DNA from: Calditrichaceae bacterium
GTDB lineage: Bacteria; Calditrichota; Calditrichia; Calditrichales; JBFXGD01
DNA: 64,000 nucleotides
Reading direction: 5' to 3'
NCBI GenBank assembly: GCA_050173015.1
Contig: JBFXLE010000001.1
Coordinates: forward strand, 64,001 to 128,000
The position numbers and the translations under genes were made by a program. Every line of letters starts with the position of its first letter. The first letter of the stretch is position 1. The notes beneath the pieces are model-generated. The model searched no databases and was not told the origin of the DNA. It was given only the letters and a program-made list of their open reading frames with translations. Below, one piece after another: positions 11,569 through 26,791 of this stretch.

Positions 11569-11642
11569 ATCACTGCCTCTTTTATAATCCGATTTCCTTT
11601 ACTATATTTCATTTACTTTCAAATTCGGCACGATGAGGGGAT

Positions 11643-12470: not shown

Positions 12471-12629
12471 CCGCGTCCCACCATTTACAGGATCAGATAA
12501 AATAGATGAATATATTGGTCCGTAAGCGCCAATTATTTTAAGGCGCAGCCTGAAAAATAAAGCCTTCTCATTAAAAAAATAATTTCACTTGCTCTCAGGC
12601 CAAATAAACACTACTCTAAATAAAGCACT

Positions 12630-15428
12630 TTGTTTAATAACGCGGGAAACAGGCTGGTCCTGAAAAATTGGATGAACCAAAAAATATCGGGGACACAGAC
12701 AGTTTCAATCGAAGATTCTCTAAAAGATCGTATTGCGTATCTGGAACAATCTGAGAAATTGTTGCGGGATGAAATCGATGCGCTAAAGGAGACAGAGGAA
12801 AGATACGCGCGAATCTTCAGGCAGTCGAAAGACGCCATCTTTATTCATGATCTGACAGGAAAAATTCTGGATGTGAACCAGGAAGCGCTAAATCTTTTTG
12901 GGTATTCCTTTAATGAATTTGTCGGTATGAAAATTTCTTCCCTTCATCCTCCTGATGAATTGCCAATTTCTGAAAAAACACTGAACATCGTCAAGAAAAA
13001 AGAAATCGTAAATACGGAAATCCGTTTCAAAAAGAAGAATGGTGAAATCTTTCCGGCGGAATTGTTTGGAGGGTTGTACTCCTTTAAGGGAGATAAATTT
13101 GTTCAGGGGATTGTCCGGGATATTTCGGATCGGAAAAGAGCGGAAAAAGCTCTGAGTGAATCCAAAAGAACGCTTCAAAATATTTACGATACCATTCCGG
13201 ACGCGGTTATTTCAACCGACGCTAAGTATAATATAACCTCCTGCAATCAGGCAGTCTATAAAGTGCTTGGATATAAACCGGAAGAATTAAATGGTAAAAG
13301 TTATCAAATGATCGTCGCGGAAGAGATGATAAATGATCCAAAACAGTTAAAAAGAGAAAAAGAATTATTCAAAAAGGGATATCTTGAACAAATCGAATAC
13401 ATTTTTAAAAGAAAGAATGGAGAAAAGTTTTTGGCAAGCTATTCTGTGGTAATGAATTTTAATGAACATGATAAATTTGTCGGCCTGGTGGGAACCATTC
13501 GTGATATCACAGAAAGAAAAAAAGTAGAAACCGCTTTAAAAGAATCGGAAGAAAAATTTAGAAATCTCGCTGAACAGTCTCCCAACATGATATTTATTAA
13601 CAAGAACGGGAAGATCGTTTATGTCAATAAACGCTGTGAAGAAATAATGGGTTATGATAAGGATGAATTTTATAGCGATGAATTTGACTTTTTGTCTTTG
13701 ATTGACAGTGCGTCTAAAGATATAGTCAGAAAATCGTTTCGCGATCATTCACAAGGGAAAGAAGTGCAGCCATTCGAATATCTTCTTAAGACAAAAAACA
13801 ATCGTAATCTTAACGCAATCCTTACCACGAAGCTCATTCAATATGAATCAGGAACGGCAATTCTTGGCATCGTAACGGATATCACTAAATGGAAACAGGC
13901 GGAATTAGCTCTCAAAGAGTCAGAAGAAAAATACAGAAAATTTTTTGAGGATGATTTAACGGGTGATTACATAACCACTCCCGAAGGTGATTTATTGTCA
14001 TGTAATCCGGCTTTCGCGAAAATATTTGGATTTGATTCTGTCGAAGATGCATTAAAATGTAATGTGATGTCATTCTATCCTGACCCAAAGACCAGGCAAA
14101 AATTGTTGCGGCTGTTAAAGAAAAAAAGAAGACTGGAATATTATGAGATGGAACTTCGTGACCGGAAAGGAAAGCCCGTCTATATTATTACCAATGTTAC
14201 CGGTCAGTTCGATAAAAGCGGAAATCTGACGGAATTGAAAGGTTACCTGTTTAACAATACAAAATTTAAGCAGCTTGAAGAACAGTTCCGCCAGGCTCAG
14301 AAAATGGAGGCGATAGGGCGTTTGGCCGGTGGTATAGAGCACGACTTTAACAATTTACTGACCATTATTCGCGGGTACAGTGAATTGAATATTACGGATC
14401 TTAAAATAAGTGACCCGTTTTATAACCGAATGGTGCAAATTGATAAAGCGGCCGAACGGGCAGAAAAGCTTACGCGTCAACTGCTGGCGTTTAGCCGAAG
14501 ACAGGTATTAATGCCAAAAATTATTAATATGAACGAGCTTTTGGAAGATATTCAAAATATGATAAAACGCATCATCGGCGAAGACATAGAGCTTATTACA
14601 ATTTTAGAGCCAAAACTGGGCGCCATTAAAGCTGATCCCGGCCAGGTCGAACAGGTCATCATGAATTTGGTTGTAAATGCCCGTGACGCGATGCCGCAAG
14701 GGGAGAAGCTAATCATCGAGACGAGAAAAGCGGATGTGGAGATTACTGCCGCGAAAGGATTCAGAAACGCGGAATCCGGTGAGTATATAATGCTGGCGAT
14801 CAGCGATACCGGTGTTGGTATGGATGAAAAAGTGAAATCGAGAATATTTGAACCTTTTTTTACAACCAAGGATACCGGTAAAGGCACGGGACTGGGTCTG
14901 GCGACCGTTTATGGAATCGTCAAACAAAGCGGGGGATATATTGATGTTTACAGCCAGGCGGGAAGAGGCAGCGCGTTTAAAATATATTTACCCGCAATAG
15001 ATGAAACGCCGGGGAGCATAGCAGAAGAAGATACTGTTGAGATTGATCTGTCCGGATACGAGTCAGTACTGGTGGTGGAAGATGAAACAGAAGTTCGTAA
15101 TATTGTCTCTCAGACATTAACATCGTATGGATACACGGTTTATGAAGCAGCGGATGGTCAGGAGGCTATACAAATTTGCATGAACTCTGAAAACACGATA
15201 CATCTTATCGTCAGTGATATTATTATGCCCAGGATGAGTGGTCATCACCTGATTGGAAGGGTTAAATCCGTATTTCCGGATATTAAAATATTGTTTATGT
15301 CGGGATACACCGATGGCGCGATGATTCATCAGGGATTGCTGGGACCCCAACTGCATTATTTACAAAAACCATTTACCCCCCGGATTCTGCTTAGAAAAGT
15401 AAGAGAAGTTCTTGATGAAGTTTTATAG
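12630..15428 (+). CDS. Multi-PAS hybrid sensor histidine kinase/response regulator (start may be ATG 12672)
   Basis: Four PAS/PAC units; QAQKMEAIGRLAGGIEHDFNN H-box; NARDAM, DTGVGM, GTGLGL; C-terminal receiver domain. Confidence 0.95.
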   Translation: MFNNAGNRLVLKNWMNQKISGTQTVSIEDSLKDRIAYLEQSEKLLRDEIDALKETEERYARIFRQSKDAIFIHDLTGKILDVNQEALNLFGYSFNEFVGMKISSLHPPDELPISEKTLNIVKKKEIVNTEIRFKKKNGEIFPAELFGGLYSFKGDKFVQGIVRDISDRKRAEKALSESKRTLQNIYDTIPDAVISTDAKYNITSCNQAVYKVLGYKPEELNGKSYQMIVAEEMINDPKQLKREKELFKKGYLEQIEYIFKRKNGEKFLASYSVVMNFNEHDKFVGLVGTIRDITERKKVETALKESEEKFRNLAEQSPNMIFINKNGKIVYVNKRCEEIMGYDKDEFYSDEFDFLSLIDSASKDIVRKSFRDHSQGKEVQPFEYLLKTKNNRNLNAILTTKLIQYESGTAILGIVTDITKWKQAELALKESEEKYRKFFEDDLTGDYITTPEGDLLSCNPAFAKIFGFDSVEDALKCNVMSFYPDPKTRQKLLRLLKKKRRLEYYEMELRDRKGKPVYIITNVTGQFDKSGNLTELKGYLFNNTKFKQLEEQFRQAQKMEAIGRLAGGIEHDFNNLLTIIRGYSELNITDLKISDPFYNRMVQIDKAAERAEKLTRQLLAFSRRQVLMPKIINMNELLEDIQNMIKRIIGEDIELITILEPKLGAIKADPGQVEQVIMNLVVNARDAMPQGEKLIIETRKADVEITAAKGFRNAESGEYIMLAISDTGVGMDEKVKSRIFEPFFTTKDTGKGTGLGLATVYGIVKQSGGYIDVYSQAGRGSAFKIYLPAIDETPGSIAEEDTVEIDLSGYESVLVVEDETEVRNIVSQTLTSYGYTVYEAADGQEAIQICMNSENTIHLIVSDIIMPRMSGHHLIGRVKSVFPDIKILFMSGYTDGAMIHQGLLGPQLHYLQKPFTPRILLRKVREVLDEVL

Positions 15429-15433
15429 CGCTT

Positions 15434-17248
15434 TCACGTCTTAAGTGGAAATATCAAGTCATCTTTTTCAACCAGTTTTCCAAAATCATCAAGTTCGAGT
15501 GGTTTGCTGAACAGATACCCCTGATATTTATAACATTTTTGCGCCCCTAAAAAGGCCAGATGTTCGGGCTCTTCGACCCCTTCCGCGATCACTTCTTTGT
15601 TAAGGTTTTGTCCAAGAACAATGATGGATTTTACCAGTTCCTTGTTCTTCTCACTGGTGCCGATATGTTGTATAAAAGAGCGATCGATTTTAATCGAAGT
15701 GGCCGGTATTTTATGCAGATATACCAAAGACGCGAATCCAATTCCAAAATCATCAATAGCGAGTTTAATGCCGAGCCGGTTTAATTCATTAATATTTGTG
15801 ATCACTTCCTTTTGGTCATCCAGATAACTGGTCTCCGTAAGCTCAAGTTGAATGTATTTGGGGTCAATATCGGATGCCTTCAATATTCTTTCCAGGCTTT
15901 TTATCATATTGGTGGATTTTAACTGTTTCGCGGAAAGATTTATCGAGACGTACAGATTCGGATTTATCTTTCGTATGACCGAGTTGAATTCCTGACAGGT
16001 TTTGTTGAATATCCAATCCCCCAGTCTGTTTATCAAATTGTTTTCTTCGGCGATCGGGATAAATGAAACGGGAGGAACAGCTCCCAGTTCCGGATTTTGC
16101 CAGCGAACCAACGCTTCAGAGCCTACAATCTTATAATCTCCGTTTGTTTTTTTTTCGATAATCGGCTGATAAACCATTTTAAGCTGTTTGTCAAACGTTT
16201 TATCTTTTACCATCGTGCGGAGATTATTTTCAATTTTTAAGCGGTTCATCGATTTGTCTGTCATGTCTTTTGAAAAGAATTGATAATTGTTTTTTCCTCG
16301 CTTTTTGGCGTTGTACATGGCGATATCGGCATTTTTGACTAAAGTTTCACGATCTTTACCGTCTCTCGGGAAGAAAACGATGCCGATACTTGGAGTCAGG
16401 TAGGTGATTTTATGGTTTTTGATGAAATAAGGTTCGGATAGATTCTTTATTAAGCGCTCCGCCACCGTACTGGCCTGAAATTCCTGTTTTAATCTGCGGG
16501 CAATGACGGTAAACTCGTCGCCGCCGAGACGGAATACATAATCGGATTTCCTCAAGGAGTCATTCATCCTTTTGGCGGCTTCTTTGAGGACCATATCTCC
16601 GACATCGTGGCCCAGAGTATCGTTAACGAGCTTGAAATTATCCAAATCACAAAAGAGGACCGCGTTGATACTGTGCGCGGCATCCCGTTCCGATTCAAGC
16701 AGAATCTGATCAAGCTGTTCATAAAAGGCGTCGCGGTTTCTTAATCCGGTAAGCTTGTCATGATACGCGAGATATTTTAATTCCTTCTGGGAAAGGACGA
16801 CCGCGGTCAGATTGGATCCAAAAAAGCAAATATGTGATATTTCTTTGCTTTCGCTGTCTTTAAATATCGGTTGATAATAGCGTTTATAGTATAAAGATTT
16901 ATTTTTATCATGAAAATAAAGCTCTTCCGTAAAACGGATCGTCTTTTTTTCTGTGAGTACCCGCGCAAAATTTTCTTTTCTCTTCTGACTGGAGTCAGAA
17001 CTGATACCCATGAGTTTAAAGAAATAATCATCATCTTTCCCCAGGATGGATTTACGAAGTTTGGCATCTACCAAATAGAGCTCATTGACAAATTCGTATT
17101 TGCCTTCAGAATTGTAAACGGCCACTTCCATCGGGACTTTTTGAAGAAGCATGTACTCATTTTTGAAGCTAACCGGATCGGTTCCATCTGAATTGTCATT
17201 GGATCTGTTCAGAAACGAGAACAGGCCTTTTTTCTGTGTCTTTGTCAT
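15434..17248 (-). CDS. PAS-GGDEF-EAL diguanylate cyclase/phosphodiesterase
   Basis: DLDNFKLVND, RLGGDEF, EALVRW, ELTE, DDFG, AEGVE. Confidence 0.95.
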   Translation of the reverse strand: MTKTQKKGLFSFLNRSNDNSDGTDPVSFKNEYMLLQKVPMEVAVYNSEGKYEFVNELYLVDAKLRKSILGKDDDYFFKLMGISSDSSQKRKENFARVLTEKKTIRFTEELYFHDKNKSLYYKRYYQPIFKDSESKEISHICFFGSNLTAVVLSQKELKYLAYHDKLTGLRNRDAFYEQLDQILLESERDAAHSINAVLFCDLDNFKLVNDTLGHDVGDMVLKEAAKRMNDSLRKSDYVFRLGGDEFTVIARRLKQEFQASTVAERLIKNLSEPYFIKNHKITYLTPSIGIVFFPRDGKDRETLVKNADIAMYNAKKRGKNNYQFFSKDMTDKSMNRLKIENNLRTMVKDKTFDKQLKMVYQPIIEKKTNGDYKIVGSEALVRWQNPELGAVPPVSFIPIAEENNLINRLGDWIFNKTCQEFNSVIRKINPNLYVSINLSAKQLKSTNMIKSLERILKASDIDPKYIQLELTETSYLDDQKEVITNINELNRLGIKLAIDDFGIGFASLVYLHKIPATSIKIDRSFIQHIGTSEKNKELVKSIIVLGQNLNKEVIAEGVEEPEHLAFLGAQKCYKYQGYLFSKPLELDDFGKLVEKDDLIFPLKT

Positions 17249-17425: not shown

Positions 17426-18205
17426 CTAATAATTTATTGTAAAGATCAGAGCTTCGCGATTTTGCTCCCAGGCATCATCGGGGCCGATATCAGGAAGCTC
17501 CAGAGTGATCACGGGTATATTCCGTTCATTCCCAGCGTAATTCCCGAATGAACCGGGAGTCGGGTATCCGATATCACTACTCACCGGATAGCCGTTCATT
17601 TGTGCAATTGTTTTTGCAAGATCCGATGCCGGACCGTCATAGTTCACCACATGTAAATCCTGATGAATTGTTATGATTTTATCCGGTCGGTATTCATTCA
17701 ATAAATCAATTATCATCCGTGTCTCAATTTCCGACGCGGGTTCCGGCCCTGGATAATTCTTTTGTTTTTGATAAGCGGGTGACCAGTCATCAGTTGGGAA
17801 ATTTCTGTTAAGATCCACTTTTTTCGAATTAAGCCGGCTTCGTTCAAATAACCCATCGGGATTTACCGCGGGGACAAGAATCACTCTTTGCCGGATTTGA
17901 TCCTGAATGGCAGCAAGATCCTCCGCCAGCCGGATAACCAGATGAAAACCGGTTTGTTCATCCCCGTGAAAAGCGCCGAGCACGAGTGTTGTGCGCGCTG
18001 ATTGTCCCAGTTCCAAAAGATAGATGTTTCGTCCCAAGCCGCTCTTTGCGTAAATTTTCCAGTCAAGTGAGCTCCGGCTAATCAATTCATATGTCTTTTT
18101 GGTCTCCCTATGTAATAACAGATGTCTGAAGTAGGGTACAAAAATATAATAACCCGCAACGCACAGAATCAAAATTAATAGTATAAGATGACTTTTTGAA
18201 TTCAT
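17426..18205 (-). CDS. mpaA: M14 zinc carboxypeptidase, murein peptide amidase A-like, with N-terminal membrane anchor
   Basis: FHGDE, NPDG, DLNRNFP, TIH, GYPTPGSFG, ITLEL. Confidence 0.8.
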   Translation of the reverse strand: MNSKSHLILLILILCVAGYYIFVPYFRHLLLHRETKKTYELISRSSLDWKIYAKSGLGRNIYLLELGQSARTTLVLGAFHGDEQTGFHLVIRLAEDLAAIQDQIRQRVILVPAVNPDGLFERSRLNSKKVDLNRNFPTDDWSPAYQKQKNYPGPEPASEIETRMIIDLLNEYRPDKIITIHQDLHVVNYDGPASDLAKTIAQMNGYPVSSDIGYPTPGSFGNYAGNERNIPVITLELPDIGPDDAWEQNREALIFTINY

Positions 18206-18548
18206 CTGCAAATCGGATCCTTCCGGGTCTTACGACAGGAGAATTAAGAAAAACTAAATGTATCAATTAACAGTGAAATTTCAAAGTTCTTTTTTGGGCA
18301 AAGATGGCAAATTAGACAGAATTATTCTCAATCCTGAACATATTATGGTTCTTATTCGCGGTTGATATTCACAAGCAATTTCTTTTTTTTGGCGAAAATT
18401 GTCAAAAAATGCTTATTTATCTTGCAAACAAGGTGTTTTATTGCTTGATTGTAATCTCAATATTTGCTTAATTTATAAATAATTTTTCCAAAATTTTTAT
18501 TGAATAAAAAATACGAATATTTTATTTCGGTTGATTGCAGGTATTCAT

Positions 18549-19115
18549 ATGGCTTTATCTTACGGATTTATTGAAACTAGAGGGCTGATCGGCGCCATTG
18601 AAGCGGCGGATGCCATGGTGAAAGCGGCAAAGGTTCATCTTGTGAACACTAAAAAAGTAGGGGCCGCTTTGGTTACGGTTATTGTTGAAGGTGAGCTTGA
18701 CGCCTGTCAGGCTGCCGTTAATGCCGGAAAAGCAGCGGCCGAACGGACCGGACAGCTGGTTTCAGCGCATGTCATTCCAAATCCATTTGAAGATACTGAG
18801 CAGCTGGTTTCAATCGGTCTTGTCCGTAAAAAAGCACGGCAGAAAAATGAAATAGAATCAGAAAATCCCGCGGCGGCAAAAATCAAAACACCGGAAAAAG
18901 CAAAAAAGGCAAAATCGGTAAAGAAATCACCGGAGACGCGGGTTGTTGAAATGCTTAGGGCGAAAGAGAATGGTCTGACACTGGATGAAATTGCGCTAAA
19001 ATTAAAAATGCCCACGAATGAAGTTCGTATTATACTGAAAAAATTGATGGATGAAAGCAGTATTGAAAAGGTCCGGCAGCGTTACTATCCTGCCTCGGGC
19101 GGAGACACTAAATGA
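18549..19115 (+). CDS. BMC-H shell protein with Lys-rich linker and C-terminal HTH (EutK-like architecture)
   Basis: GFIETRGLIGAIEAADAMVKAA...HVIPNP, then LTLDEIALKLKMPTNEVRIILKKL; ATG 18549 preferred over TTG 18531. Confidence 0.88.
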   Translation: MALSYGFIETRGLIGAIEAADAMVKAAKVHLVNTKKVGAALVTVIVEGELDACQAAVNAGKAAAERTGQLVSAHVIPNPFEDTEQLVSIGLVRKKARQKNEIESENPAAAKIKTPEKAKKAKSVKKSPETRVVEMLRAKENGLTLDEIALKLKMPTNEVRIILKKLMDESSIEKVRQRYYPASGGDTK

Positions 19116-19888
19116 AGTTGATTGTAGTGATCAACAATAAGGGGGGCGTCGGTAAAACCACGAGTGTGGTGAATCTTGCCGCATGGTTTGCAAAAATGAA
19201 GCAGAAAACCTTGTTGATTGATCTTGATCCGTCTTCCAGCGCGTCTATTCACCTTGGATTTGATAAAACGGACAAAGCTCATCAGACTTTATGTGATTTT
19301 CTGCTTTCTGAGAACTCCAAACTTAGCGACTATATTTATCCCGCAGAGCAGAAAAATTTATCCTGCCTGCCATCCGAGCCGGCATTAAGTGATTTTTATG
19401 AAGAGATCAAACAGGATAGCGATGTTGAATTTTTCCTCAATCGTAAGGATATTCCAAGTGATTTCGACATTGTTTTATTTGATAGTCCTCCAAATATGGG
19501 TTCACTGGCATTAAACGCGCTTGCCATCGCGGATTACGCGCTTGTTCCCGTTCAGACACAATATCTTGCTCTGTCAGGACTGGAATTGACCGTAAAAATG
19601 ATCGATAAGGCGCAGCGTCGTTTAAATCCGGGGCTGCAGGTTCTCGGTTATTTTGGAACTCATTATGACCGTCGAACGAATGTGGCCAAGGATGTTTTAA
19701 ATTTTATCAGAGAGAAATACGGGAAAAATGTTTTTCGTACGGCCATCGGTGTCAACAGTAAATTAATTGAAGCATATCACGCGCAGAAGCCGATTTTATA
19801 TTACGCGCCTTCGGCCAGAGGATCCAGGGAATATGGCGAGTTGGCAAAAGAAATTTTAAATCGTTTGAATACTAATACCATAAAATAA
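19112..19888 (+). CDS. ParA/Soj family ATPase
   Basis: KGGVGKTT deviant Walker A, IDLDP, FDSPP, LVPVQ; ATGA overlap with the shell gene. Confidence 0.93.
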   Translation: MKLIVVINNKGGVGKTTSVVNLAAWFAKMKQKTLLIDLDPSSSASIHLGFDKTDKAHQTLCDFLLSENSKLSDYIYPAEQKNLSCLPSEPALSDFYEEIKQDSDVEFFLNRKDIPSDFDIVLFDSPPNMGSLALNALAIADYALVPVQTQYLALSGLELTVKMIDKAQRRLNPGLQVLGYFGTHYDRRTNVAKDVLNFIREKYGKNVFRTAIGVNSKLIEAYHAQKPILYYAPSARGSREYGELAKEILNRLNTNTIK

Positions 19889-19902
19889 AGACGGAATGAG
19901 AA

Positions 19903-20205
19903 ATGAAGAAATTAATTTCCGCCGCTGTTGTAAAACAAGCGCATGCCGATAAAAAAATGCAGCTCGATGTTCCCAGATCGACTGCCATCATAACACCGGA
20001 AGCCAGAAGTTTAGCAGAAAAACTCGGCATAAAACTGGTTGAATATGGTGATGCCGCTGCCCGGGGAAAAAGGGCCGTGGCCGGAAATCAGGATGAAAAC
20101 CTGGTGGAATTAATCACACAAAAAGTGATGGCCAGGATCCCGCGCGGCAAACAGGATCCCAGCAGAATCAGGAAGATTGTGAGAGAAGTTTTGGCCGGTC
20201 GGTAA
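19903..20205 (+). CDS. Small BMC-associated protein: EutQ N-terminal-like domain plus two encapsulation-peptide-like helices
   Basis: MKKLISAAVV...AIITPEARSLAEKLGI resembles the EutQ N-terminus; ENLVELITQKVMARI and RIRKIVREVL are amphipathic. Confidence 0.65.
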   Translation: MKKLISAAVVKQAHADKKMQLDVPRSTAIITPEARSLAEKLGIKLVEYGDAAARGKRAVAGNQDENLVELITQKVMARIPRGKQDPSRIRKIVREVLAGR

Positions 20206-20278
20206 GTGAAAACGCTGAATCTTTCCCGGCATTCAGATTAAATATTAATTAAAATTTTATACGGAAAAATCAGTATCA

Positions 20279-21310
20279 TTGAATCACTATACCGTATCTT
20301 TAAAAAAAGAGATGAAAAAACGGCCGGCCTTTTTGTCGGCTTGCATGGACCGGTGTCTTAAAAAACGTTCACGAGTTGTGTTTCCGGATGCGCTGGATGA
20401 AAGGGTGCTGAGAGCGTCGAGATTTCTCCATGATGAAAAACTGGCTGTTCCGGTTCTGCTCGGTAACCCGTTTGAGATACGCGATTTTGCGGAAAACGCA
20501 AAAATCAGAACGAACGGATTAAAAATTCTGAAACCGCTTCATTCATCCGAATATGACAGATATGTGAAGTTGTATTATAAACTGCGCAGGCATAAGGGAC
20601 TCACAATAACGGATGCGGCGCAATATCTGCTTGATCCTCTTCAGTTCGGCGCGATGATGTTGAGAGAAGGACAGGCCGATGTGTGTTTGGCAGGGAACAG
20701 CTCATCCACAGCGGATGTGCTGCGGACCGGATACAGAATTATCGGAACAGGAGGAAAACAAAATCCTGTTTCCAGTTTTTTCTTAATGATTTCACCGGAT
20801 TTGAATCGTATATTTGCTTTCGCCGACTGTAGCGTCAATCCGGATCCGACGGCCGAAGAACTGGCGGAAACGGCTATCCAAACAGCATCTTCTTTTGAAC
20901 TTGTAACGGGGATGGAAGCGCGGGTGGCGATGTTGTCCTTTTCTACGAAAGGAAGCGCGGATCACCAGAAAACGGAAAAAGTTAAAAGGGCGGCAGAAAT
21001 AGCTCTGAAGCGCGATCCTTCATTGCGACTGGACGGAGAATTGCAGTTTGACGCGGCGATCGTAGATAAGATCGCGGAAAAAAAAGCACCGGGAAGCGTC
21101 TTGCGGGGAAAGGCGAATGTTTTTATCTTTCCCACATTAAACGCGGCAAACATTGGTTATAAAATAGCGGAACATCTTGGGATGTATCAGACGTTGGGAT
21201 CTTTTGTACAAGGATTTACAAAATCCCTGCACGATTTATCCAGGGGGTGCACTACCGAGTCGATCATAAACACCGCGGTAGTCGCGTCATGCATGCATAG
21301 AGAAAATTAA
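20279..21310 (+). CDS. pta: Phosphate acetyltransferase (PTA_PTB family, EutD-like)
   Basis: FADC, AMLSFSTKGS, DGELQFDAA, NIGYK, DLSRG; start TTG 20279 or ATG 20312. Confidence 0.9.
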   Translation: MNHYTVSLKKEMKKRPAFLSACMDRCLKKRSRVVFPDALDERVLRASRFLHDEKLAVPVLLGNPFEIRDFAENAKIRTNGLKILKPLHSSEYDRYVKLYYKLRRHKGLTITDAAQYLLDPLQFGAMMLREGQADVCLAGNSSSTADVLRTGYRIIGTGGKQNPVSSFFLMISPDLNRIFAFADCSVNPDPTAEELAETAIQTASSFELVTGMEARVAMLSFSTKGSADHQKTEKVKRAAEIALKRDPSLRLDGELQFDAAIVDKIAEKKAPGSVLRGKANVFIFPTLNAANIGYKIAEHLGMYQTLGSFVQGFTKSLHDLSRGCTTESIINTAVVASCMHREN

Positions 21311-21339
21311 AGGTTATGCTTTAAATATAGGAGAAATAA

Positions 21340-21627
21340 ATGGAAGCATTAGGAATGGTTGAAACTAAAGGGCTCGTTGGATTGATAGAAGCTTCGGATG
21401 CGATGGTAAAAGCGGCGAAGGTCAAACTTGTGGCCCACGTGCAAATTGGCGCCGGTTATGTAACGGCATTAGTTCGCGGAGATGTGGCTGCGTGCAAGGC
21501 GGCAACAGACGCGGGAGCTGCAGCAGCGGAACGTGTTGGCGAGCTTGTCGCCGTGCATGTTATTCCCCGTCCCCATGATGATCTTGAAGATATATTCCCG
21601 ATAAAGTTCACGGGAAAAATTAAATAA
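21340..21627 (+). CDS. BMC-H hexamer shell protein (EutM/PduA-like)
   Basis: ALGMVETKG...DAMVKAA...[10 protein letters not shown]...HVIPRPH. Confidence 0.97.
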
Positions 21628-21715
21628 TGATATTTGATTGCAAGTATCATTTTTTGCTTAGTGTTGGATTGTCAAATAATATTGAATACGGAAATCCAGA
21701 ATAATTATTAAGGAG

Positions 21716-22009
21716 ATGTCGATGGAAGCATTAGGTATGATTGAAACCAAAGGTTTGATTGGCTTGATAGAGGCTTCGGACGCCATGGTTAAAGCCGCGC
21801 GCGTCAAATTAGTCGCATATCAACAGATCGGCGGCGGGTATGTTACCGCATTGGTACGTGGAGATGTTGCCGCGTGTAAAGCCGCGACAGATGCCGGCGC
21901 CGCAGCTGCCGAAAGAGTAGGTGAACTGATCGCGGTACATGTTATTCCCCGCCCTCATGGTGATCTGGAAGATGTGTTTCCGATAAAAATGAAAGGCGAA
22001 ATTAAATAA
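21716..22009 (+). CDS. BMC-H hexamer shell protein (EutM/PduA-like), paralog of the previous gene
   Basis: Same motifs; near-identical protein with many synonymous differences. Confidence 0.97.
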
Positions 22010-22098
22010 TCAGTTTGTCTGATTTATTTACTTGCCGCCGTAGGAACCGGAAATATTCAAACAGGGAAGTACCGTTCATAGTTACAAAGGATTAATAT

Positions 22099-23502
22099 AT
22101 GAGTTTATCATCGCAGGAAATTGCCCGGATTGTGGATACAGTCGTTCAGCGGCTGGATGGGAAAGTGGCATCATCAGGAAAGCTTTCCGCGGGCATATTT
22201 GAGAATCTGGATGATGCGGTCGCTGCCGCCGCGCGCGCTCAAAAACAGATCAAAAATCTGGATTTGCGGGCTAAAATCATTCAGGCGATGCGCGCCGCAG
22301 GTGAAAAATACGCCCGTGAACTGGCTGAACTTGCCGTTCAGGAAACGGGAATGGGCCGTGTGGAAGATAAAATTCTGAAAAATATCTCACAGTCTCAGAA
22401 AACTCCGGGAATTGAAGATCTTCAGCCACAGGCTCTTTCAGGAGATCATGGACTGACGCTGACCGAGAATGCGGCATGGGGGGTGATTGCCTCTGTGACG
22501 CCGTCAACCAATCCGGCGGCAACGGTCATTAACAATTCTATCAGTATGGTTTCCGCGGGAAACGCCGTTGTTTTTGCTCCTCATCCCGGGGCAAAGCGTG
22601 TCTCACAGCGAGCCATCACTATTTTAAATGAAGCCATTGTGTCAGCCGGCGGTCCGCCCAATCTTCTTACCACAGTCGCGGAACCGTCGATCGAATCGGC
22701 ACAGCAGCTTTTCATCTATCCGGGGATAGATTTGCTTGTTGTTACAGGCGGAGAAGGTGTTGTTGAAGCAGCCAGAAAAATGACCAACAAACGTCTGATG
22801 GCTGCCGGCGCCGGTAATCCCCCCGTAGTTGTTGATGAAACCGCGGATATTTCCAAAGCCGCAAAAGCAATTGCTTTCGGCGCTTCATTGGATAACAATA
22901 TTCTCTGCACTGATGAGAAAGAAATAATCGCGGTGGATAGTATCACAGATCAGCTCAAACAAGAATTAAAAAAACACAAGGCGGTTGAATTAACGCCGGC
23001 TCAGGCTGAAGAGCTGGCTAAAGTGATTTTAAATGGCTATCCGGGTGAAAATCCTGTAATTAACCGCAAGTTTGTCGGGCGGAACGCCTCTATTATTGCC
23101 AAAGAGATTGGATTAAACGTTCCGGATGATACCCGACTTTTGTTTACGGAGACAGCAAAAAATCACCCGTTTGCAGTCGTCGAACTAATGATGCCGGTCA
23201 TACCGCTGATTCGGGCTACGGACGCCGATACCGCCATAGATACGGCTAAAGAACTGGAGCGTGGATTACGGCATACCGCGGCAATGCATTCAAGAAATAT
23301 CGACAACATGCACCGTATGGCGAATGAAATTAACACAAGTATATTCGTCAAAAACGGACCCTGCGCCGCCGGTTTAGGATTCGGCGGGGAGGGCTGGACC
23401 TCGATGACAATCACCACACCTACCGGTGAAGGCGTGACATCGGCAAAAACCTTTGTCAGACTGCGCCGCTGCGTTGTAGTCGATCATTTCCGCATTGTAT
23501 AA
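22099..23502 (+). CDS. eutE: CoA-acylating aldehyde dehydrogenase (EutE/PduP family) with N-terminal encapsulation peptide
   Basis: PSTNP, VTGG, AGAGNPP, DNNILCTDEK, ELMMP, TPTGEG; N-terminal SQEIARIVDTVVQRL. Confidence 0.93.
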   Translation: MSLSSQEIARIVDTVVQRLDGKVASSGKLSAGIFENLDDAVAAAARAQKQIKNLDLRAKIIQAMRAAGEKYARELAELAVQETGMGRVEDKILKNISQSQKTPGIEDLQPQALSGDHGLTLTENAAWGVIASVTPSTNPAATVINNSISMVSAGNAVVFAPHPGAKRVSQRAITILNEAIVSAGGPPNLLTTVAEPSIESAQQLFIYPGIDLLVVTGGEGVVEAARKMTNKRLMAAGAGNPPVVVDETADISKAAKAIAFGASLDNNILCTDEKEIIAVDSITDQLKQELKKHKAVELTPAQAEELAKVILNGYPGENPVINRKFVGRNASIIAKEIGLNVPDDTRLLFTETAKNHPFAVVELMMPVIPLIRATDADTAIDTAKELERGLRHTAAMHSRNIDNMHRMANEINTSIFVKNGPCAAGLGFGGEGWTSMTITTPTGEGVTSAKTFVRLRRCVVVDHFRIV

Positions 23503-23613
23503 TATTTAATAATATGCGCAAAAACATAAACCGGACGAGACTATATTTGCTGATCAAAAGTCATCGCGTCAATGATTTGCGGGGTCTGTCCGGGATAACC
23601 GGGTACAATAAAA

Positions 23614-24447
23614 ATGGATCAGTTAAAACTGGTAAATGACAGACTAAAAAAAATAGAAGAAATCGTTAACGATTCTTCACCGGGGAACGCTCCTGAAAAA
23701 TGGCATGTGGGAGTTGATCTCGGAACGGCCGATATTGTTGTCATCGTCACGGATGAAAACGGCGAGCCGCACTCCGCGTTTATGGAGTGGGCGGAAGTGG
23801 TACGTGACGGCATTGTCCTTGATTACTGGAAAGCAACGCAAATTGTAAAAGAGCTCTTAGAAAAAACTGAGCGTAAGTTAAATATTGAAATAAAAAGCGC
23901 GATCACTTCCTATCCTCCCGGAACCGATCCGCGGACTTCAAAAAATGTAATCGAAGCCGCCGGATTGATAGTGGAAGGTATTATAGATGAGCCCTCCAGT
24001 GTGGCCCATTTGCTCAATATGGAATCAGGAGCAGTTGTGGATGTGGGCGGAGGCACAACCGGAATTGCCATCGTCAGGGATAAAAAAATAATATATTCCG
24101 CTGATGAACCCACCGGCGGAAGACACGCCACATTGACCATAGCCGGGAATCAGGGGATCAGTTTTGAAAAAGCGGAAGAAATGAAAAGAAACGGACAAGC
24201 AGCCAGTTTGAAACCGATTGTTGAACCGGTGTTCCAAAAAATGGCGGATATTGTGCGAAAACATCTTGAAAATTATGATACAAAAGATATCTATCTGTCC
24301 GGAGGCACTTTTTGCTTTCCGGGAATCGATAAGGTCTTTATAGATGAATTAACAGGGAAAAATATTATCCTTCCTTATAATCCCTTATATCTGACCCCAT
24401 TGGCGATTGCTTCATACAGAGTGAGCGGAAAGGAAACCAATGGATAA
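23614..24447 (+). CDS. eutJ: EutJ family (actin/Hsp70-like) protein
   Basis: GVDLGTADIV, VVRDGIV, DEPS, VVDVGGGTTG, ADEPTGG, TPLAIA. Confidence 0.93.
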   Translation: MDQLKLVNDRLKKIEEIVNDSSPGNAPEKWHVGVDLGTADIVVIVTDENGEPHSAFMEWAEVVRDGIVLDYWKATQIVKELLEKTERKLNIEIKSAITSYPPGTDPRTSKNVIEAAGLIVEGIIDEPSSVAHLLNMESGAVVDVGGGTTGIAIVRDKKIIYSADEPTGGRHATLTIAGNQGISFEKAEEMKRNGQAASLKPIVEPVFQKMADIVRKHLENYDTKDIYLSGGTFCFPGIDKVFIDELTGKNIILPYNPLYLTPLAIASYRVSGKETNG

Positions 24448-25798
24448 GCAGTCGATGCTGAAGAGTATTCGTGACGCCGGGGTGATCGGCGCGGGTGGCG
24501 CCGGATTTCCGACTTATAAAAAACTGGACGCGAAGGTTGATCATATCATCGCCAATGGCGCTGAGTGCGAACCTCTGTTATATAAAGACAGAGAAGTGAT
24601 GCTCCAAAGACAGGATGAGTTTTTTCGCGGTCTTTCAATCATGAAAAAGTTGACAGACGCCAACGAAGTGACAATCGCTCTCAAAGAAAAAAACAAAGAT
24701 GTCGCCGATCAGTTAAAAGATCAGGCTGAATCGCTTGGGTTTAAATTTTTTGTATACAAAGATGTTTATCCGGCAGGGGATGAATACGTTCTGGTCTATG
24801 AGATCGCCGGCCGAAGAATACCACCGGGCGGCATACCTCTGCAGGTTGGGTGTGTGGTTGATAATGTTGAAACTATTATAAATATCGCAAGAGCCGTTGA
24901 TGGTTACCCTGTTACCGATAAATTTATCACTGTGACTGGCGAGGTGAAAACTCCTATAACCACGGTTGTGCCGATTGGTACCACATTTCTTGAGTGTCTT
25001 GAAGCCGCGGGAGGATTAACCACGGATAAGCCGGTTGTTTTAACCGGCGGGGTAATGATGGGTGGAGTCGAAACGGATCTAAGTACACCCGTTTCGAAAA
25101 TCAACGGCGGATTGATTGTTCTTCCGGAAGATCATTACCTGGTTAGAAGAAAAACGGCCCCTCGCGAGATTTATACAAGGATAGGGCACGGGCAGTGCGA
25201 TCAGTGTTCGATGTGTACCGAGCTTTGTCCCCGTTATATAATGGGATATCCCATTGAACCGCATAAAGTGATGCGGACTTTACAAATGACGGGTGAAAAT
25301 AAGGCGCGGGTAAGTTTATGGGCGCAGTATTGTTGTGAATGCAATATATGCACGATGATTGCTTGTCCGGAGAGCCTGGATCCAAAAAGTATCTGTGTGG
25401 ATGCAAAACAGCTTCTGAAAGAAAATCAGCTGACGAGGACACCGGAGGAACTGGATGTCCTTTTCAGAGACGTCCATCCATCAAGAAAAGCCAGGGAAAT
25501 TCCGATTACTTCGGTTTACCAGAGACTCGGACTAAAAAAATATGACCGGCATGCCGATTTTTTTGATAATAATATTAAACCAAAAACGGTGGTGATTCCT
25601 CTGGATTCACATATCGGGGCTCCGTCTGTTCCTATTGTAAGAGTTGGCGATAATGTTCGAAAGGGTGATCCTCTGAGCAGTGTCTCTGACGACAAACTGG
25701 GTTGTCCTTCACACTCGAGTATTGACGGAAAAGTCACCATGATCGATGCGGCGGGTGTGCATATCGCTTCGGGTGGCCAGGAATTAAACAGGATTTGA
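24440..25798 (+). CDS. pduS: PduS-like flavin/Fe-S oxidoreductase (Complex1_51K, SLBB, two 4Fe-4S)
   Basis: GAGGAGFPT, NGAECEPLL, YPAGDE, CDQCSMCTELCP, CCECNIC; C-terminal HIGAP sandwich domain. Confidence 0.88.
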   Translation: MDKQSMLKSIRDAGVIGAGGAGFPTYKKLDAKVDHIIANGAECEPLLYKDREVMLQRQDEFFRGLSIMKKLTDANEVTIALKEKNKDVADQLKDQAESLGFKFFVYKDVYPAGDEYVLVYEIAGRRIPPGGIPLQVGCVVDNVETIINIARAVDGYPVTDKFITVTGEVKTPITTVVPIGTTFLECLEAAGGLTTDKPVVLTGGVMMGGVETDLSTPVSKINGGLIVLPEDHYLVRRKTAPREIYTRIGHGQCDQCSMCTELCPRYIMGYPIEPHKVMRTLQMTGENKARVSLWAQYCCECNICTMIACPESLDPKSICVDAKQLLKENQLTRTPEELDVLFRDVHPSRKAREIPITSVYQRLGLKKYDRHADFFDNNIKPKTVVIPLDSHIGAPSVPIVRVGDNVRKGDPLSSVSDDKLGCPSHSSIDGKVTMIDAAGVHIASGGQELNRI

Positions 25799-25862
25799 AG
25801 TAAGAAATTAAAACAGAATGGTCAGTTATTGACCGGATTCAATATAACGAGGAATAATCAAA

Positions 25863-26411
25863 ATGGGTTCAGCAATCGGGATCGTTGAAACATCAAGCAT
25901 CGCAAAAGGGTTCGAAGTTGCAGATGCCGTTCTCAAACGAGCCAATGTGGAGATCGTTGTTAATCGCACGATCTGTCCGGGAAAATATATGGTGCTTATC
26001 GGTGGGGATGTGGATGCTGTCAATGCGAGTATTGAAGCAGGAATTGATGTGGGCGCCCACACGGTTGTCGATCATTTTGTAATTCCCAATGTTCACCCAT
26101 CCGTTTTTCCGGCGATCAGCGGGGTCACACATCTGCCTGAGCTGCAGGCGCTCGGTGTGATCGAAGGATTTAGTGTCGCTTCCGTTATAGAAGCCGCGGA
26201 CGCGGCGGTTAAGTCCGCTCCCGTGGATCTGATCACCATCCATCTGGCGATGGCCATAGGGGGCAAGGGATTTGTCTCATTCACAGGGGAAGTCGCGGCT
26301 GTTCAGGCAGCAGTTGATGCCGGGTCCGAAGTGATTGAGCGGAAAGGTTTGCTGGTCGAGAAGATTGTTATTCCGTCTCCACGACCGGAAATTGTTTCCG
26401 AATTTATTTAA
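25863..26411 (+). CDS. pduT: BMC-T tandem shell protein, PduT-like
   Basis: Two BMC domains; TICPGKY pore cysteine; follows pduS. Confidence 0.9.
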   Translation: MGSAIGIVETSSIAKGFEVADAVLKRANVEIVVNRTICPGKYMVLIGGDVDAVNASIEAGIDVGAHTVVDHFVIPNVHPSVFPAISGVTHLPELQALGVIEGFSVASVIEAADAAVKSAPVDLITIHLAMAIGGKGFVSFTGEVAAVQAAVDAGSEVIERKGLLVEKIVIPSPRPEIVSEFI

Positions 26412-26428
26412 TGAATTTTCCCATCGTG

Positions 26429-26791
26429 TCATTCTTCTCTGTGTAAAAGTTCCGGTGAAAAAGCCGGCAGGCATATGGAAATGTATTCGGCCGGTTCATC
26501 AAAGGGGTTGGAATAGCGTACACGGGCGCCTTTTCTGATATAGACCGATTCTCCGGGTTTTAACTCAATTGCTTCTCCATCAATTTCGATCATTTTTGAG
26601 CCGGAAATAATCAATGTTATCTCATCAAATTCTGGCTTTTGATACGGTTCTTTCCACCCCGGCGGAGCGATCATACGCGCTAGGCTGTATCCTTTTTCGC
26701 CCGTGCTGGCGCGGCCAAAATGTTCATCAATGATCTTATTGTCCTCTGTGGGGACTCTAAAAGGATTAGATTGTTTAAAAAATTTTTTCAT
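26429..26791 (-). CDS. Cupin domain protein
   Basis: EPYQKPEFDEITLIISG...LKPGESVYIRKGARVRYSNP. Confidence 0.85.
   Translation of the reverse strand: MKKFFKQSNPFRVPTEDNKIIDEHFGRASTGEKGYSLARMIAPPGWKEPYQKPEFDEITLIISGSKMIEIDGEAIELKPGESVYIRKGARVRYSNPFDEPAEYISICLPAFSPELLHREE

Follow-up and report, generated by a model that had tools for sequence, protein, structure and literature searches.

The first two genes of a microcompartment (BMC) operon in a member of the phylum Calditrichota probably encode the two parts of a module that positions a catabolic microcompartment. The window, i.e., the whole stretch of 64,000 nucleotides that was analysed, contains an ORF (18549-19115, plus strand) encoding an EutK-like shell protein in which a BMC-H domain is followed by a disordered basic linker and a winged helix (wHTH). 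Its stop codon overlaps the start codon of the gene for a ParA-type ATPase (19112-19888, plus strand) in the ATGA at 19112-19115, exactly as a preliminary description of this DNA had it. The only microcompartment positioning system that has been worked out is McdAB of the carboxysome (PMC8262871, PMC11407121). The present locus genetically joins two questions, namely how catabolic microcompartments are distributed and inherited, and what the C-terminal domain of EutK does. Here an EutK-type shell protein is obligately paired, and translationally coupled, with a dedicated ParA, and the interface proposed for them has named residues on both sides, so that two small soluble proteins suffice for a direct test.

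The operon continues downstream of ParA in the same direction. A gene for a 100-aa protein (19903-20205) is followed by those for a Pta-type phosphotransacylase (20279-21310; PF01515, 8.7e-108), two BMC-H shell proteins (21340-21627 and 21716-22009; PF00936, 1.7e-25 and 4.5e-28), an acylating aldehyde dehydrogenase belonging to the metabolosome core (22099-23502; PF00171, 1.7e-31), an EutJ-like protein of the actin/Hsp70 fold (23614-24447; PilM_2, FtsA, and MreB matches), a PduS/RnfC-like flavo-iron-sulfur protein (24440-25798; Complex1_51K 4.6e-41, Fer4_17, RnfC_N), and a PduT-like BMC-T protein with tandem BMC domains (25863-26411; PF00936 in two stretches, 5.5e-47). The aldehyde dehydrogenase, Pta, and PduS-like genes identify the locus as a metabolosome locus. 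A gene for a cupin protein that is weakly similar to the cupin of EutQ lies convergently at the end of the operon (26429-26791, minus strand; Cupin_2 2.2e-11, EutQ 1.1e-5, and, in blastp, 3.7e-7 against the cupin portion of the EutQ that this genome encodes). Upstream, a divergent gene encodes an M14-type peptidase-like protein (17426-18211, minus strand; Peptidase_M14 1e-17). A homologue of this peptidase is found divergently upstream of the operon start in nine of the 20 window-type loci examined, and it is the only recurrent neighbour; no conserved gene for a flanking enzyme was found in these 20 loci. Consensus scans of positions 18000-27200 gave 19 promoter-like sites where 16.8 were expected and 14 terminator-like sites where 10.2 were expected. 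These counts are not above chance, and the boundaries of the operon can therefore not be derived from the scan.

The shell fusion and ParA are strictly coupled. Wherever the ParA is 54-93% identical to that of the window, a gene for a BMC-H fusion is found directly upstream (27 of 27 loci), and none of the 53 loci with a ParA of at most 38% identity contains a BMC or Eut gene. The 4-nt overlap between stop and start is found in the window and in 15 of the 27 loci, and in 26 of them the two genes overlap or are at most 15 nt apart. A census of 86 genomes of the phylum, using cut-offs of E<=1e-60 for ParA and E<=1e-6 for the wHTH profile, identified the same 35 genomes with both queries and 37 matches for each. 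The wHTH is encoded just upstream of ParA in all 37 cases, and there is no orphan of either. With the pair recurring in 27/27 loci and in 37/37 adjacencies, the arrangement is far beyond chance. Four genomes of the order do not encode the pair; three of these also lack the aldehyde dehydrogenase of the locus, while in one it is cut off at the end of a contig. The phylum further includes 25 genomes that encode BMC-P without having the fusion-ParA pair, showing that the pair is not a general requirement for a BMC.

Two types of loci host the pair. In full EUT loci it follows EutA-B-C-L and takes the place of eutK, while loci of the window type do not contain EutABC. The genome analysed here has both, as a second fusion-ParA pair is found inside a complete ethanolamine (EUT) locus on another contig, C21. 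The order EutA-B-C-L-fusion is found for this paralogue and in five EUT-type loci, while the window copy of the pair opens an operon lacking EutABC. The two copies are 56% (ParA) and 51% (fusion) identical. In a mirror-tree comparison the correlation of the pairwise ParA identities is r 0.63 with the wHTH and r 0.60 with the BMC domain, and 15 of the 27 rows have a matching nearest neighbour. The similar r for the two domains indicates co-inheritance only, and not specific co-evolution.

The layout of BMC-H domain, Lys/Arg-rich linker, and HTH originally described for the shell protein holds. Pfam BMC covers residues 4-79 (1.1e-25), the basic stretch that had been quoted is present, and the C-terminal region is HTH-like. 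The BMC-H domain proper (residues 1-87; 18549-18809) is modelled by AlphaFold2 with pLDDT >90, and a fold search with residues 2-86 gave a Z of 16.6 to PduJ (5d6v; rmsd 2.3 over 85 aligned residues). It is followed by the disordered polybasic linker (residues 88-126; 18810-18926; pLDDT <50 at 103-123) and the wHTH, the predicted ParA-docking domain (residues 127-188 plus stop; 18927-19115). The AlphaFold2 model of the entire fusion displays a BMC fold at 1-99, disorder at 100-127, and a three-helix winged helix at 128-181 with pLDDT ~92, in which helices 128-138, 145-152, and 156-168 are followed by strands 172-175 and 178-181. The C-terminal region has weak matches to several wHTH families of Pfam. 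Residues 125-188 gave a Z of 10.4 to TtgV (2xrn), and the fold relatives are DNA-binding regulators of the IclR, MarR, and ArsR types (Z ~9-10). By analogy to solved shells, the C-terminus would face the cytosol.

Among 29 orthologues the linker is 19-79 aa long (median 39). Its sequence is not conserved, while its net charge (median +9) is positive in 28 of the 29; it is 0 at locus L031 and +3 at locus L028. The wHTH subfamily is found almost exclusively fused to BMC-H. A scan of 1.84 billion representatives identified an N-terminal BMC domain in all 27 scanned proteins with a single-stretch C-terminal match (E<=5.6e-9). A metagenome scan using the fusion alignment, with patterns derived from the BMC domain, mainly retrieved generic BMC-H genes (79 of the 80 retained loci among the matches listed). 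It adds one case, locus L092, where ParA is encoded directly downstream of the wHTH-bearing gene, and is uninformative when it comes to breadth.

EutK of Salmonella and E. coli similarly combines a BMC-H domain with a C-terminal helix-turn-helix, and the C21 paralogue is encoded behind eutL, at the place of eutK. Residues 4-179 of the fusion are covered by the NCBIfam EutK model, although neither the window copy (93.5 bits) nor the C21 copy (107 bits) reaches the cut-off of 218 for the EutK equivalog NF012010. The window protein is also below the cut-off for EutK_C (16.8 bits as against 27.5). At E<=0.1, EutK_C matches 17 of 28 orthologues with a best value of 4.6e-6, and the profile of the wHTH domain matches the structure of the EutK C-terminus (3i71) with an E of 0.0059. 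The window protein differs from EutK in having a much longer and more basic linker and in being followed by a dedicated ParA. No mention of a ParA in the enteric eut operon was found in the available text of the literature on that operon. When eutK is deleted in Salmonella, Eut compartments are static and located at the poles, and a ParB-like role was speculated on in that study (PMC12487888). According to a 2026 preprint, an eutK mutant displays polar or bipolar bodies, which were likened to those of mcdAB mutants. The Salmonella studies thus report mislocalisation of the compartments, while their available text names no motor.

The ParA, a protein of 258 aa, covers the whole of the Pfam AAA_31 model (positions 1-177 of 177; 151.5 bits, cut-off 27) and also matches CbiA (66.1 bits). 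All ATPase motifs are intact. The deviant Walker A motif KGGVGKT at residues 10-16 includes the signature lysine, a feature shared with alpha-McdA and type 2 beta-McdA (PMC8359340). K10 and K15 are invariant in all 27 members of the clade described below and in 55 other aligned ParAs. Also invariant are D37, D39, and D124 (Walker B), whose aligned counterparts in M. xanthus ParA are D58, D60, and the Walker B Asp. R188, presumably the equivalent of Soj R189, is invariant within the clade, and the C-terminal tails are short and variable. The invariant K217 is aligned with R238 of M. xanthus ParA, where the substitution R238E leads to loss of non-specific DNA binding (PMC12462528).

Of the solved relatives, M. 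xanthus ParA is the closest in sequence with 152.7 bits, followed by Thermus Soj with 135.5 bits. For McdA (structures 6non and 6noo) the score is 50.6 bits, over ParA residues 1-168, and at this distance nothing can be transferred from McdA by homology. The Soj-like sequence would be expected if the gene served ordinary chromosome or plasmid partitioning and lay beside a BMC operon by chance. The census contradicts this reading, to which we give practically no credence: in 86 genomes these ParAs were never found without the shell fusion. The preliminary description was also right in that the window contains no parB. The sole ParB_N match of the genome (C17:84504-84785) adjoins the chromosomal Soj on a different contig, C17. 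In a tree built without McdA sequences, the 27 BMC-linked ParAs (those of the window, of the C21 locus, and of 25 other loci) form one clade with an SH-aLRT of 100 and a stem length of 1.03, apart both from the genome's own Soj and from a chemotaxis-linked ParA that is also encoded in the genome, separately from the BMC-linked copies. The residues of the ParB site are remodelled relative to those of the genome's own Soj; at the positions of Y81, L152, L187, and Q190 in M. xanthus ParA, the window ParA has C, S, K, and R, and this Soj has Y, L, L, and K. The protein thus has neither the ParB pairing nor the canonical ParB-peptide pocket of a chromosomal Soj/ParA. It had been suggested that a ParA grouping with chromosomal Soj and lacking conservation in similar BMC loci would speak against a positioning module. 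The first half of this is borne out as far as the sequence is nearer to Soj/ParA than to McdA, but the protein belongs to a clade of its own that is strictly conserved in these BMC loci. The in silico evidence supports a ParA that is dedicated to the microcompartment locus and distinct from the chromosomal Soj.

Like McdA of the beta (Synechococcus elongatus) and alpha (Halothiobacillus neapolitanus) systems, the window ParA is a ParA-type ATPase encoded together with microcompartment genes. By analogy, the same logic of a nucleoid-bound ATPase, an organelle-borne adaptor, and a diffusion ratchet would be expected. The host locus is, however, that of a catabolic metabolosome and not of a carboxysome. 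The ParA is accompanied neither by carboxysome genes nor by an McdB partner, and its sequence is not nearer to McdA. The candidate adaptor is a folded wHTH on a shell protein, while McdB is a separate disordered protein with a C-terminal tryptophan. Judged by the features of McdB (small size, intrinsic disorder, charge at the N-terminus, and an aromatic residue among the last four), no McdB-like gene was found at the locus; the sole small neighbour is the EutQ N-terminal domain dealt with below, and this protein does not end with an aromatic residue. In the fusion the basic disorder is internal, and a conserved Tyr-Tyr/Phe is found in the folded wing, 9-10 residues before the end in the window protein.

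Binding between the fusion and ParA was modelled by co-folding two copies of ParA and two ATP with residues 86-188 of the fusion, in three runs and with three controls. The score was 0.61 in each run compared to 0.10 for the best control. Of the solved complexes, 116 of 157 attained that mark, as did 2 of 215 mismatched pairs, and both the custom alignments and the ligand used here are outside this calibration. The runs agree in at least 75% of the contacts, with a partner pLDDT of at least 64. In the model the wHTH is docked across the ParA dimer, and the confident contacts connect wHTH residues 142-183 with residues 52, 61-67, and 91-102 in one ParA subunit and with 131, 134, and 166-171 in the second. 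Direct binding of the fusion to ParA, and the site at which it occurs, are thus predicted by the model. The proposal that the shell protein itself serves as ParA adaptor gains from this prediction, but the contacts are made by the wHTH and not, as first thought, by the Lys/Arg-rich linker.

The predicted site coincides with that of the ParB peptide in M. xanthus ParA-ParB (PDB 8RAY, PMC12462528), the closest solved relative of the ATPase. Using the 8RAY alignment, eight of the ten residues defining the M. xanthus site align with the predicted interface (Y81, E82, D110, E117, L152, L155, L187, and L192), while V116 and L150 do not. In both cases a conserved basic residue of the partner is pointed at the H4/H6/H7 site. 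The systems differ in their partner (a folded domain here, an unstructured peptide there) and in their cargo (a protein shell versus DNA); the pocket residues are changed in the window ParA, and there is no ParB. The clade-specific invariants C61, K166, and R169 are located at ParB-site positions, where the Soj of this genome retains canonical residues. Only four of the 19 clade-specific invariant ParA positions lie within the interface, and conservation of the interface within the clade is not above that of the rest of the protein (0.68 vs. 0.71). One correlated change was observed, from fusion R160 to L together with ParA K52 to P in five loci; it is confined to a single lineage and thus counts as one event. 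As other pairs of a ParA and its partner are known to use this site, the docking could in part be due to memorisation by the model.

The opposite division of labour would have the wHTH bind DNA, thereby tethering the shell to the nucleoid or acting as a regulator, while the Lys/Arg-rich linker contacts and activates ParA in the manner of the basic peptides of ParB and McdB. Given the fold of the wHTH, shared with DNA-binding regulators at Z ~9-10, this domain may well bind DNA, and the C-terminal domain of EutK has been described as positively charged and possibly nucleotide-binding (PMC12487888). In the wHTH of the fusion, however, the invariant acidic residues D168 and E173 lie beside the third helix, and the net charge is only ~+2. 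The third invariant residue of the domain is K164. As to the linker, it is common for a partner of a ParA/MinD ATPase to act through a short region that is charged (PMC11407121), and the positive charge, maintained in all but one of the orthologues despite the unconserved sequence, is strongly selected, which the co-fold model does not explain. None of the confident contacts involves a linker residue, though, and the linkers of L031 (net 0) and L028 (+3) also speak against a role as activator. Taken together, we consider this alternative unlikely.

In the mechanism we propose, the BMC domain of the EutK-class hexamer subunit would be built into the shell, while its C-terminal extension, consisting of a polybasic disordered tether of ~40 residues and a winged helix of 60 residues, would project from it. 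The Soj-like ParA would bind the nucleoid as an ATP-bound dimer through its conserved basic residues. Docking of the wHTH, with K164 taking the place of the ParB arginine at the ParA dimer, would stimulate ATP hydrolysis and release ParA locally. The organelle would then chase the ParA remaining on the nucleoid by a diffusion ratchet, and organelles would be kept apart and be inherited by both daughters, as carboxysomes are by means of McdAB. The shell protein would in this way fill the role of ParB or McdB with no separate adaptor protein, and the 100-aa protein would stay outside positioning as a link between shell and cargo. Nucleoid binding, ATPase stimulation, and positioning are what we infer from the motifs, the predicted complex, and the known systems. 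As a tentative generalisation, EutK-class shell proteins might be built-in ParB analogues, with the C-terminal wHTH primarily being a module for docking and activating ParA that inserts a conserved lysine into the ParB-peptide site at the dimer edge.

The strict coupling in itself implies a joint function of unspecified kind, and the two proteins might control how shells are assembled or how many compartments form, exert quality control over shell incorporation, or feed back on the operon via the wHTH. ParA/MinD ATPases are also known to regulate assembly and transcription factors, for instance FlhG with FlrA (PMC11407121), and in window-type loci the pair is found at the very start of the operon. 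The ParA nevertheless retains every ATPase motif and, in K217, the aligned counterpart of the arginine with which M. xanthus ParA binds DNA, and mislocalised compartments are the sole EutK phenotype known. A role other than positioning is therefore judged improbable.

The protein encoded directly after ParA was originally described as an encapsulation-peptide protein with two such helices, and as a possible ParA adaptor. The ORF and the two helices are there; AlphaFold2 predicts a small alpha/beta part, disorder at 51-61, and helices at 63-78 and 86-97. By sequence, however, the protein is a copy of the EutQ N-terminus, and would bind encapsulation peptides rather than carry them. It matches residues 5-109 of the genome's full EutQ (blastp 2e-18) and positions 1-98 of 233 of the NCBIfam EutQ model NF012001 (E 7.5e-15). 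The score of 55.3 bits is below the EutQ cut-off of 193, and the protein ends at residue 100, without the C-terminal cupin (acetate kinase) domain. In Salmonella EutQ the H1/H2 part of the N-terminal region binds the shell, while H3/H4 bind the encapsulation peptides of cargo (PMC12487888). The layout predicted for the window protein, in which a structured N-terminal part, a flexible middle, and two C-terminal helices follow each other, is similar to what has been described for this domain (Salmonella residues 1-99; PMC12487888). The window protein differs from EutQ in standing alone, the weakly related cupin gene being the convergent one at the end of the operon. Homology thus marks it as a stand-alone EutQ N-terminal domain, the putative linker between shell and cargo.

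The gene starts 14 nt after ParA, which it directly follows in 18 of the 21 assessable window-type loci, and the middle of the protein is disordered, as might be expected of an McdB-like adaptor. Such a role is very unlikely for a homologue of a region that binds shell and cargo in Salmonella (PMC12487888). The gene is missing behind ParA in L028, L031, and L035, and in EUT-type loci its homologue is the N-terminus of a full EutQ encoded three genes downstream of ParA. The suggestion of a small adaptor protein is consequently not borne out, and of the gene trio that was to be checked for conservation only the fusion-ParA pair is strict.

That BMC loci may contain or adjoin genes for ParA (PF01656) or McdA-like proteins has been reported before, and a role in positioning was proposed (Axen 2014, PMC4207490; MacCready 2021, PMC8359340, section 2.9). 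Where putative McdAB-like genes were noted beside BMC operons other than those of carboxysomes, the partners named were McdB-like proteins in their own right, having an aromatic residue at the C-terminus, while a shell fusion or a link to EutK is not mentioned in the available text of these papers. A literature search of limited scope, partly covering the sources, found no report of a EutK-ParA gene pairing, only speculation linking EutK and McdA on the basis of phenotype. ParA genes in BMC loci are thus known; what is new is the candidate adaptor integrated in the shell. If EutK-class shell proteins are ParB analogues as suggested above, parA would as a single extra gene suffice to space and partition a metabolosome whose shell carries the adaptor. 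This would further point to a mechanism behind the static compartments seen at the poles of Salmonella eutK mutants, and provide synthetic biology with a minimal two-gene positioning kit that might counter the aggregation of engineered compartments.

BMC loci of the FRAG3 type, with a DeoC/LacD aldolase gene beside those for BMC-P and a C-terminally extended BMC-H, are commonest in Calditrichaeota (Sutter 2021, PMC8217296, supplementary file 4). A word search of that file gave no mention of ParA, in which the fusion-ParA loci differ from the 'fragmented' FRAG1/FRAG3 loci as described there. Satellite loci of this fragmented kind are also present in the genome analysed here, and the candidates for the signature enzyme of the window-type locus are located in satellite loci of the genome.

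A compact operon occupies positions 18549-26411 on the plus strand of the window. The product of its first gene (18549-19115) has 188 aa and carries a BMC-H shell domain at its N-terminus (PF00936, 1.1e-25). The stop codon of this gene is overlapped (ATGA, 19112-19115) by the ATG of the second gene, which encodes a 258-aa ParA-type ATPase (19112-19888). The following genes, all on the same strand, encode a 100-aa protein (19903-20205), a Pta-type phosphotransacylase, two BMC-H proteins, an acylating aldehyde dehydrogenase, a EutJ-like protein, a PduS/RnfC-like protein and a tandem-domain BMC-T. The operon is flanked by a divergent M14 peptidase-like gene at its start and a convergent cupin gene at its end.

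The structure of the first protein was predicted with AlphaFold2 from an alignment of 27 orthologues. Residues 1-99 form a BMC fold (pLDDT above 90), residues ~100-127 are disordered (pLDDT below 50 over 103-123), and the C-terminus is a three-helix winged helix (wHTH) with helices 128-138, 145-152 and 156-168 and two strands (pLDDT ~92). An all-against-all structure search matched residues 1-87 to PduJ, CsoS1 and PduA (Z 15-16.6), and residues 124-188 to the winged-helix regulators TtgV, IclR, MarR and ArsR (Z 9-10.4). The preliminary description of a BMC-H domain joined by a basic linker to an HTH, with the ATGA overlap and a ParA behind it, was thus right, as judged by Pfam, the model and the structure matches of the two halves. 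The NCBIfam EutK model covers residues 4-179 of the fusion at 93.5 bits, which is under its cut-off of 218. The linker has kept its character but not its sequence: across 29 orthologues it has a median of 39 residues and a median net charge of +9, with positive values in 28 of them. Two loci (L016, 3108-3794, and L017, 7318-8004) encode linkers about twice as long, 79 residues with a net charge of +18 to +20, so the length of the tether differs widely among lineages. The wHTH is a conserved domain, with K164, D168 and E173 invariant and a motif of the form IEKV..KY[YF] at its end.

The 100-aa protein had been described as carrying two encapsulation-peptide-like helices. Its match to the genome's own full-length EutQ spans residues 5-109 of the latter (2e-18), and the EutQ model aligns with it over positions 1-98 of 233 (E 7.5e-15); the EutQ encoded on contig C21 scores above the cut-off of this model (212.9 vs. 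193 bits). In the AlphaFold2 model (pLDDT 73.5), helices 7-15 and 32-41 belong to a small alpha/beta part, residues 51-61 are disordered, and two further helices span 63-78 and 86-97. Salmonella EutQ needs no more than its residues 1-99 to target a reporter to the compartment; helices H1/H2 bind the shell and H3/H4 the encapsulation peptides of the cargo (PMC12487888). By this homology and analogy, the helices of the 100-aa protein are more likely a receptor for encapsulation peptides than such peptides themselves.

The genome, whose nearest public relatives are Calditrichaceae genome bins, comprises 4.34 Mb in 54 contigs and encodes four ParA-type proteins with strong family scores. The ParA on contig C17 is followed by the genome's only ParB_N match and these genes are thus the chromosomal Soj-ParB pair, which also bears out the earlier remark that the window holds no parB. 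Another, on contig C7 (C7:106000-116000, 1815-5890, minus strand), adjoins genes for a response regulator, CheW and a chemoreceptor and is probably an ATPase that positions chemoreceptor arrays. The remaining two are the ParA in the window and one inside a complete ethanolamine (EUT) locus on C21. Each ParA examined in the genome adjoins genes of its likely cargo.

The EUT locus is split over two contig ends (C21:60000-75725, 2720-15724, and C14:1-3187). It encodes, in order, EutA, EutB, EutC, EutL, a 186-aa BMC-H-wHTH fusion, ParA, a EutS-like protein, EutP and full-length EutQ, and then a 283-aa putative EutT-like protein, Pta, three BMC-H proteins, EutN, aldehyde dehydrogenase and a PduS-like protein. 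C21 ends within the PduS-like gene, and C14 begins with the C-terminal part of that gene, a BMC-T gene and EutH. The fusion takes the same place behind EutL as eutK does behind eutL in the enteric eut operon. It is 51% identical to the fusion of the window, while the two ParAs are 56% identical.

Both ParAs were used to scan one genome per species from 185,579 species, and the best 80 of 170 confirmed relatives were analysed. ParA identity was 54-93% in 27 of these 80 loci and at most 38% in the other 53, with none between. In all 27 near loci, ParA is directly preceded by a BMC-domain ORF of 163-234 aa, and no BMC or Eut genes were found within the stretch examined around any of the 53 distant ParAs. 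The two genes overlap or are at most 15 nt apart in 26 of the 27, with a 4-nt overlap between fusion stop and ParA start in 15. Among the 27, 22 resemble the window in having the pair without EutABC, and five are EUT loci like that on C21. The order fusion, ParA and EutQ N-terminal protein was found in 18 of the 21 assessable window-type loci, and the small protein is missing behind ParA in three (L028, L031 and L035). Conservation of the gene trio, suggested earlier as a check, therefore holds for the fusion and ParA in every near locus among the best 80 of 170, and for the third gene in most window-type loci.

In a tree of 82 ParAs, from which L015 (a near-copy of L014) and L027 (truncated) were omitted, the 27 BMC-linked sequences (window, C21 and 25 loci) group together in a single clade on a long stem, at an SH-aLRT support of 100. 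The genome's own Soj and chemotaxis ParA lie outside it, which sets the BMC-linked ParAs apart from chromosomal Soj.

An independent census covered all 86 available genomes of the phylum, using thresholds of E<=1e-60 for ParA and E<=1e-6 for a wHTH-only profile. ParA gave 37 matches in 35 genomes and the wHTH profile 37 matches in the same 35, every one of them preceding a same-strand ParA match by 3 to ~50 nt. The matches are confined to one order, where they occur in 34 of 38 other genomes besides that of the window. Three of the four genomes of the order without the pair also lack the aldehyde dehydrogenase of the locus, and in the fourth this gene is cut at a contig end. BMC-P genes are found in 64 of the 86 genomes, 25 of them outside the order, and the phylum thus has microcompartments without the pair. 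Searched against 1.84 billion representative proteins, the wHTH profile gave 46 matches at E<=1e-10. Thirty-eight proteins among the 150 matches listed were taken to a Pfam scan; most have a single C-terminal match and 165-257 aa, and four are longer or match in several stretches. An N-terminal BMC domain was found in 28 of the 38, including all 27 single-stretch matches at E<=5.6e-9, so the subfamily is essentially a shell-protein appendage. The multi-stretch matches in long proteins cover part of the profile only and were taken as HTH-repeat noise. The genes of fusion and ParA are very probably functionally coupled.

The window-type locus contains neither a signature enzyme nor BMC-P. BMC-P genes occur elsewhere in the genome: on C11 (C11:46000-58000, ~4312-8312) one is flanked by genes for a PGM/PMM-family mutase and for a DeoC/LacD aldolase, with a pyrimidine nucleoside phosphorylase gene coming next, and on C3 (C3:153000-165000, 5930-7655) two adjoin a gene for a metalloenzyme-superfamily protein, possibly a phosphopentomutase. 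These satellite loci fit the 'fragmented' type FRAG3, which is described as commonest in Calditrichaeota and as having an aldolase beside BMC-P and a C-terminally extended BMC-H; the corresponding extension in FRAG1 was called 'analogous to EutK' (Sutter 2021, PMC8217296 supplementary file 4). From these neighbours one may reasonably guess that the window-type compartment converts deoxyribose phosphate or nucleosides to acetaldehyde.

The preliminary description had further proposed that the shell protein, or else the small protein, may act as ParA adaptor, and had noted the use of basic peptides by ParA activators. Two ParA chains, two ATP and fusion residues 86-188 were co-folded, each protein with its alignment. 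The score was 0.61 in all three runs against 0.10 for the best of three controls. In calibration, 116 of 157 solved complexes reached the mark, as did 2 of 215 mismatched pairs; the alignments supplied and the ligand fall outside this calibration. The runs share at least 75% of contacts, with partner pLDDT of at least 64. All confident contacts of the partner are in the wHTH (142, 145, 156-157, 160-161, 164, 167-168, 173-176, 178, 180 and 183) and none in the linker, so the C-terminal part of the fusion is predicted to dock through its folded domain. The contacts on ParA span one subunit (52, 61-62, 65-67, 91, 94-95, 98-99 and 102) and the other (131, 134, 166-167 and 169-171); the predicted site thus requires the dimer.

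Among solved structures, the window ParA is closest to 8RAY (152.7 bits), Myxococcus xanthus ParA21-274-D60A with ATP, on which the site for the ParB N-terminal peptide has been mapped by mutation, BLI and NMR (PMC12462528). It consists of a hydrophobic pocket (V116, L150, L152, L155, L187 and L192) and, on the other subunit, residues holding the arginine of the peptide (Y81, E82, D110 and E117). Numbers were transferred through the printed alignment (M. xanthus number = chain index + 19, as verified with D58, D60A and N64). The pocket corresponds to E97, M129, S131, L134, K166 and L171 of the window ParA and the arginine site to C61, D62, A91 and E98; eight of these ten positions are within the predicted wHTH interface, E97 and M129 being outside. 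The pairs with the lowest predicted error join the invariant K164 to ParA C61, D62, A91 and F95. The wHTH would thus dock on the ParA dimer at the ParB-peptide site, with K164 in the place of the ParB arginine, a position where many ParBs have lysine (PMC12462528). In the BMC clade this site is changed, Y81 to C (27/27), L187 to K (26/27) and Q190 to R (27/27), with S commonest at L152 (12/27); the genome's own Soj retains Y, L, K and L at the Y81, L187, Q190 and L152 positions. This remodelling is independent of any model, and is expected if the clade has its own partner and must not cross-talk with ParB. K217 is invariant in the clade and is not part of the predicted partner site. Its counterpart in the M. 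xanthus alignment is R238, and the R238E variant no longer binds DNA non-specifically (PMC12462528).

The ParA interface is no more conserved within the clade than the rest (0.68 vs. 0.71), its residues are less common to other ParAs (0.125 vs. 0.35), and of the 19 positions that are clade-specific invariants only four fall within it. Just one correlated substitution was seen; in five loci of a single lineage (L024, L028, L031, L032 and L033), L replaces R160 of the fusion and P replaces K52 of ParA, both predicted interface positions. DNA binding by the wHTH is also possible, since the fold is that of DNA-binding proteins. The co-fold model gives no role to the strongly basic linker, which may bind to DNA, increase the local concentration at the nucleoid or help to activate the ATPase.

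ParA (PF01656) has been counted among the accessory genes found in BMC loci (PMC4207490), and McdA/McdB-like genes adjoin four non-carboxysome BMC operons (PMC8359340 section 2.9), a point also made in two reviews (PMC8262871 section 10; PMC11407121). Compartments are mislocalised in Salmonella eutK mutants (PMC12487888; also a 2026 preprint), and a ParB-like role for EutK, or one together with ParB, has been put forward as speculation (PMC12487888). A limited literature search turned up no report of EutK-class shell proteins obligately paired with a dedicated ParA, and no proposal of wHTH docking at the ParB-peptide site. ParA, McdA and EutK go unmentioned in the main text of the Sutter 2021 catalogue, and ParA is absent from its supplementary file 4. 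ParA-based positioning is a known kind of system; what would be new is an adaptor fused to the shell, the wHTH serving as the link between organelle and ATPase. We regard this full mechanism, ParA positioning the organelle through the shell-fused adaptor, as somewhat favoured, its least certain step being direct binding of the modelled wHTH to ParA at the ParB site.

Upstream of the operon (12630-17248), a plus-strand gene encodes a hybrid histidine kinase of 932 aa that combines several PAS domains with a receiver domain; it is followed by a convergent gene for a 604-aa GGDEF-EAL protein on the minus strand. Further upstream, positions 2001-8000 have a G+C content of 0.28-0.31 compared with ~0.40-0.48 elsewhere, and a negative GC skew. 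Just 3' of the operon (26933-27856, plus strand) is a gene for a 307-aa protein with no Pfam match, homologues of which are found in the same place in L013 and L026.
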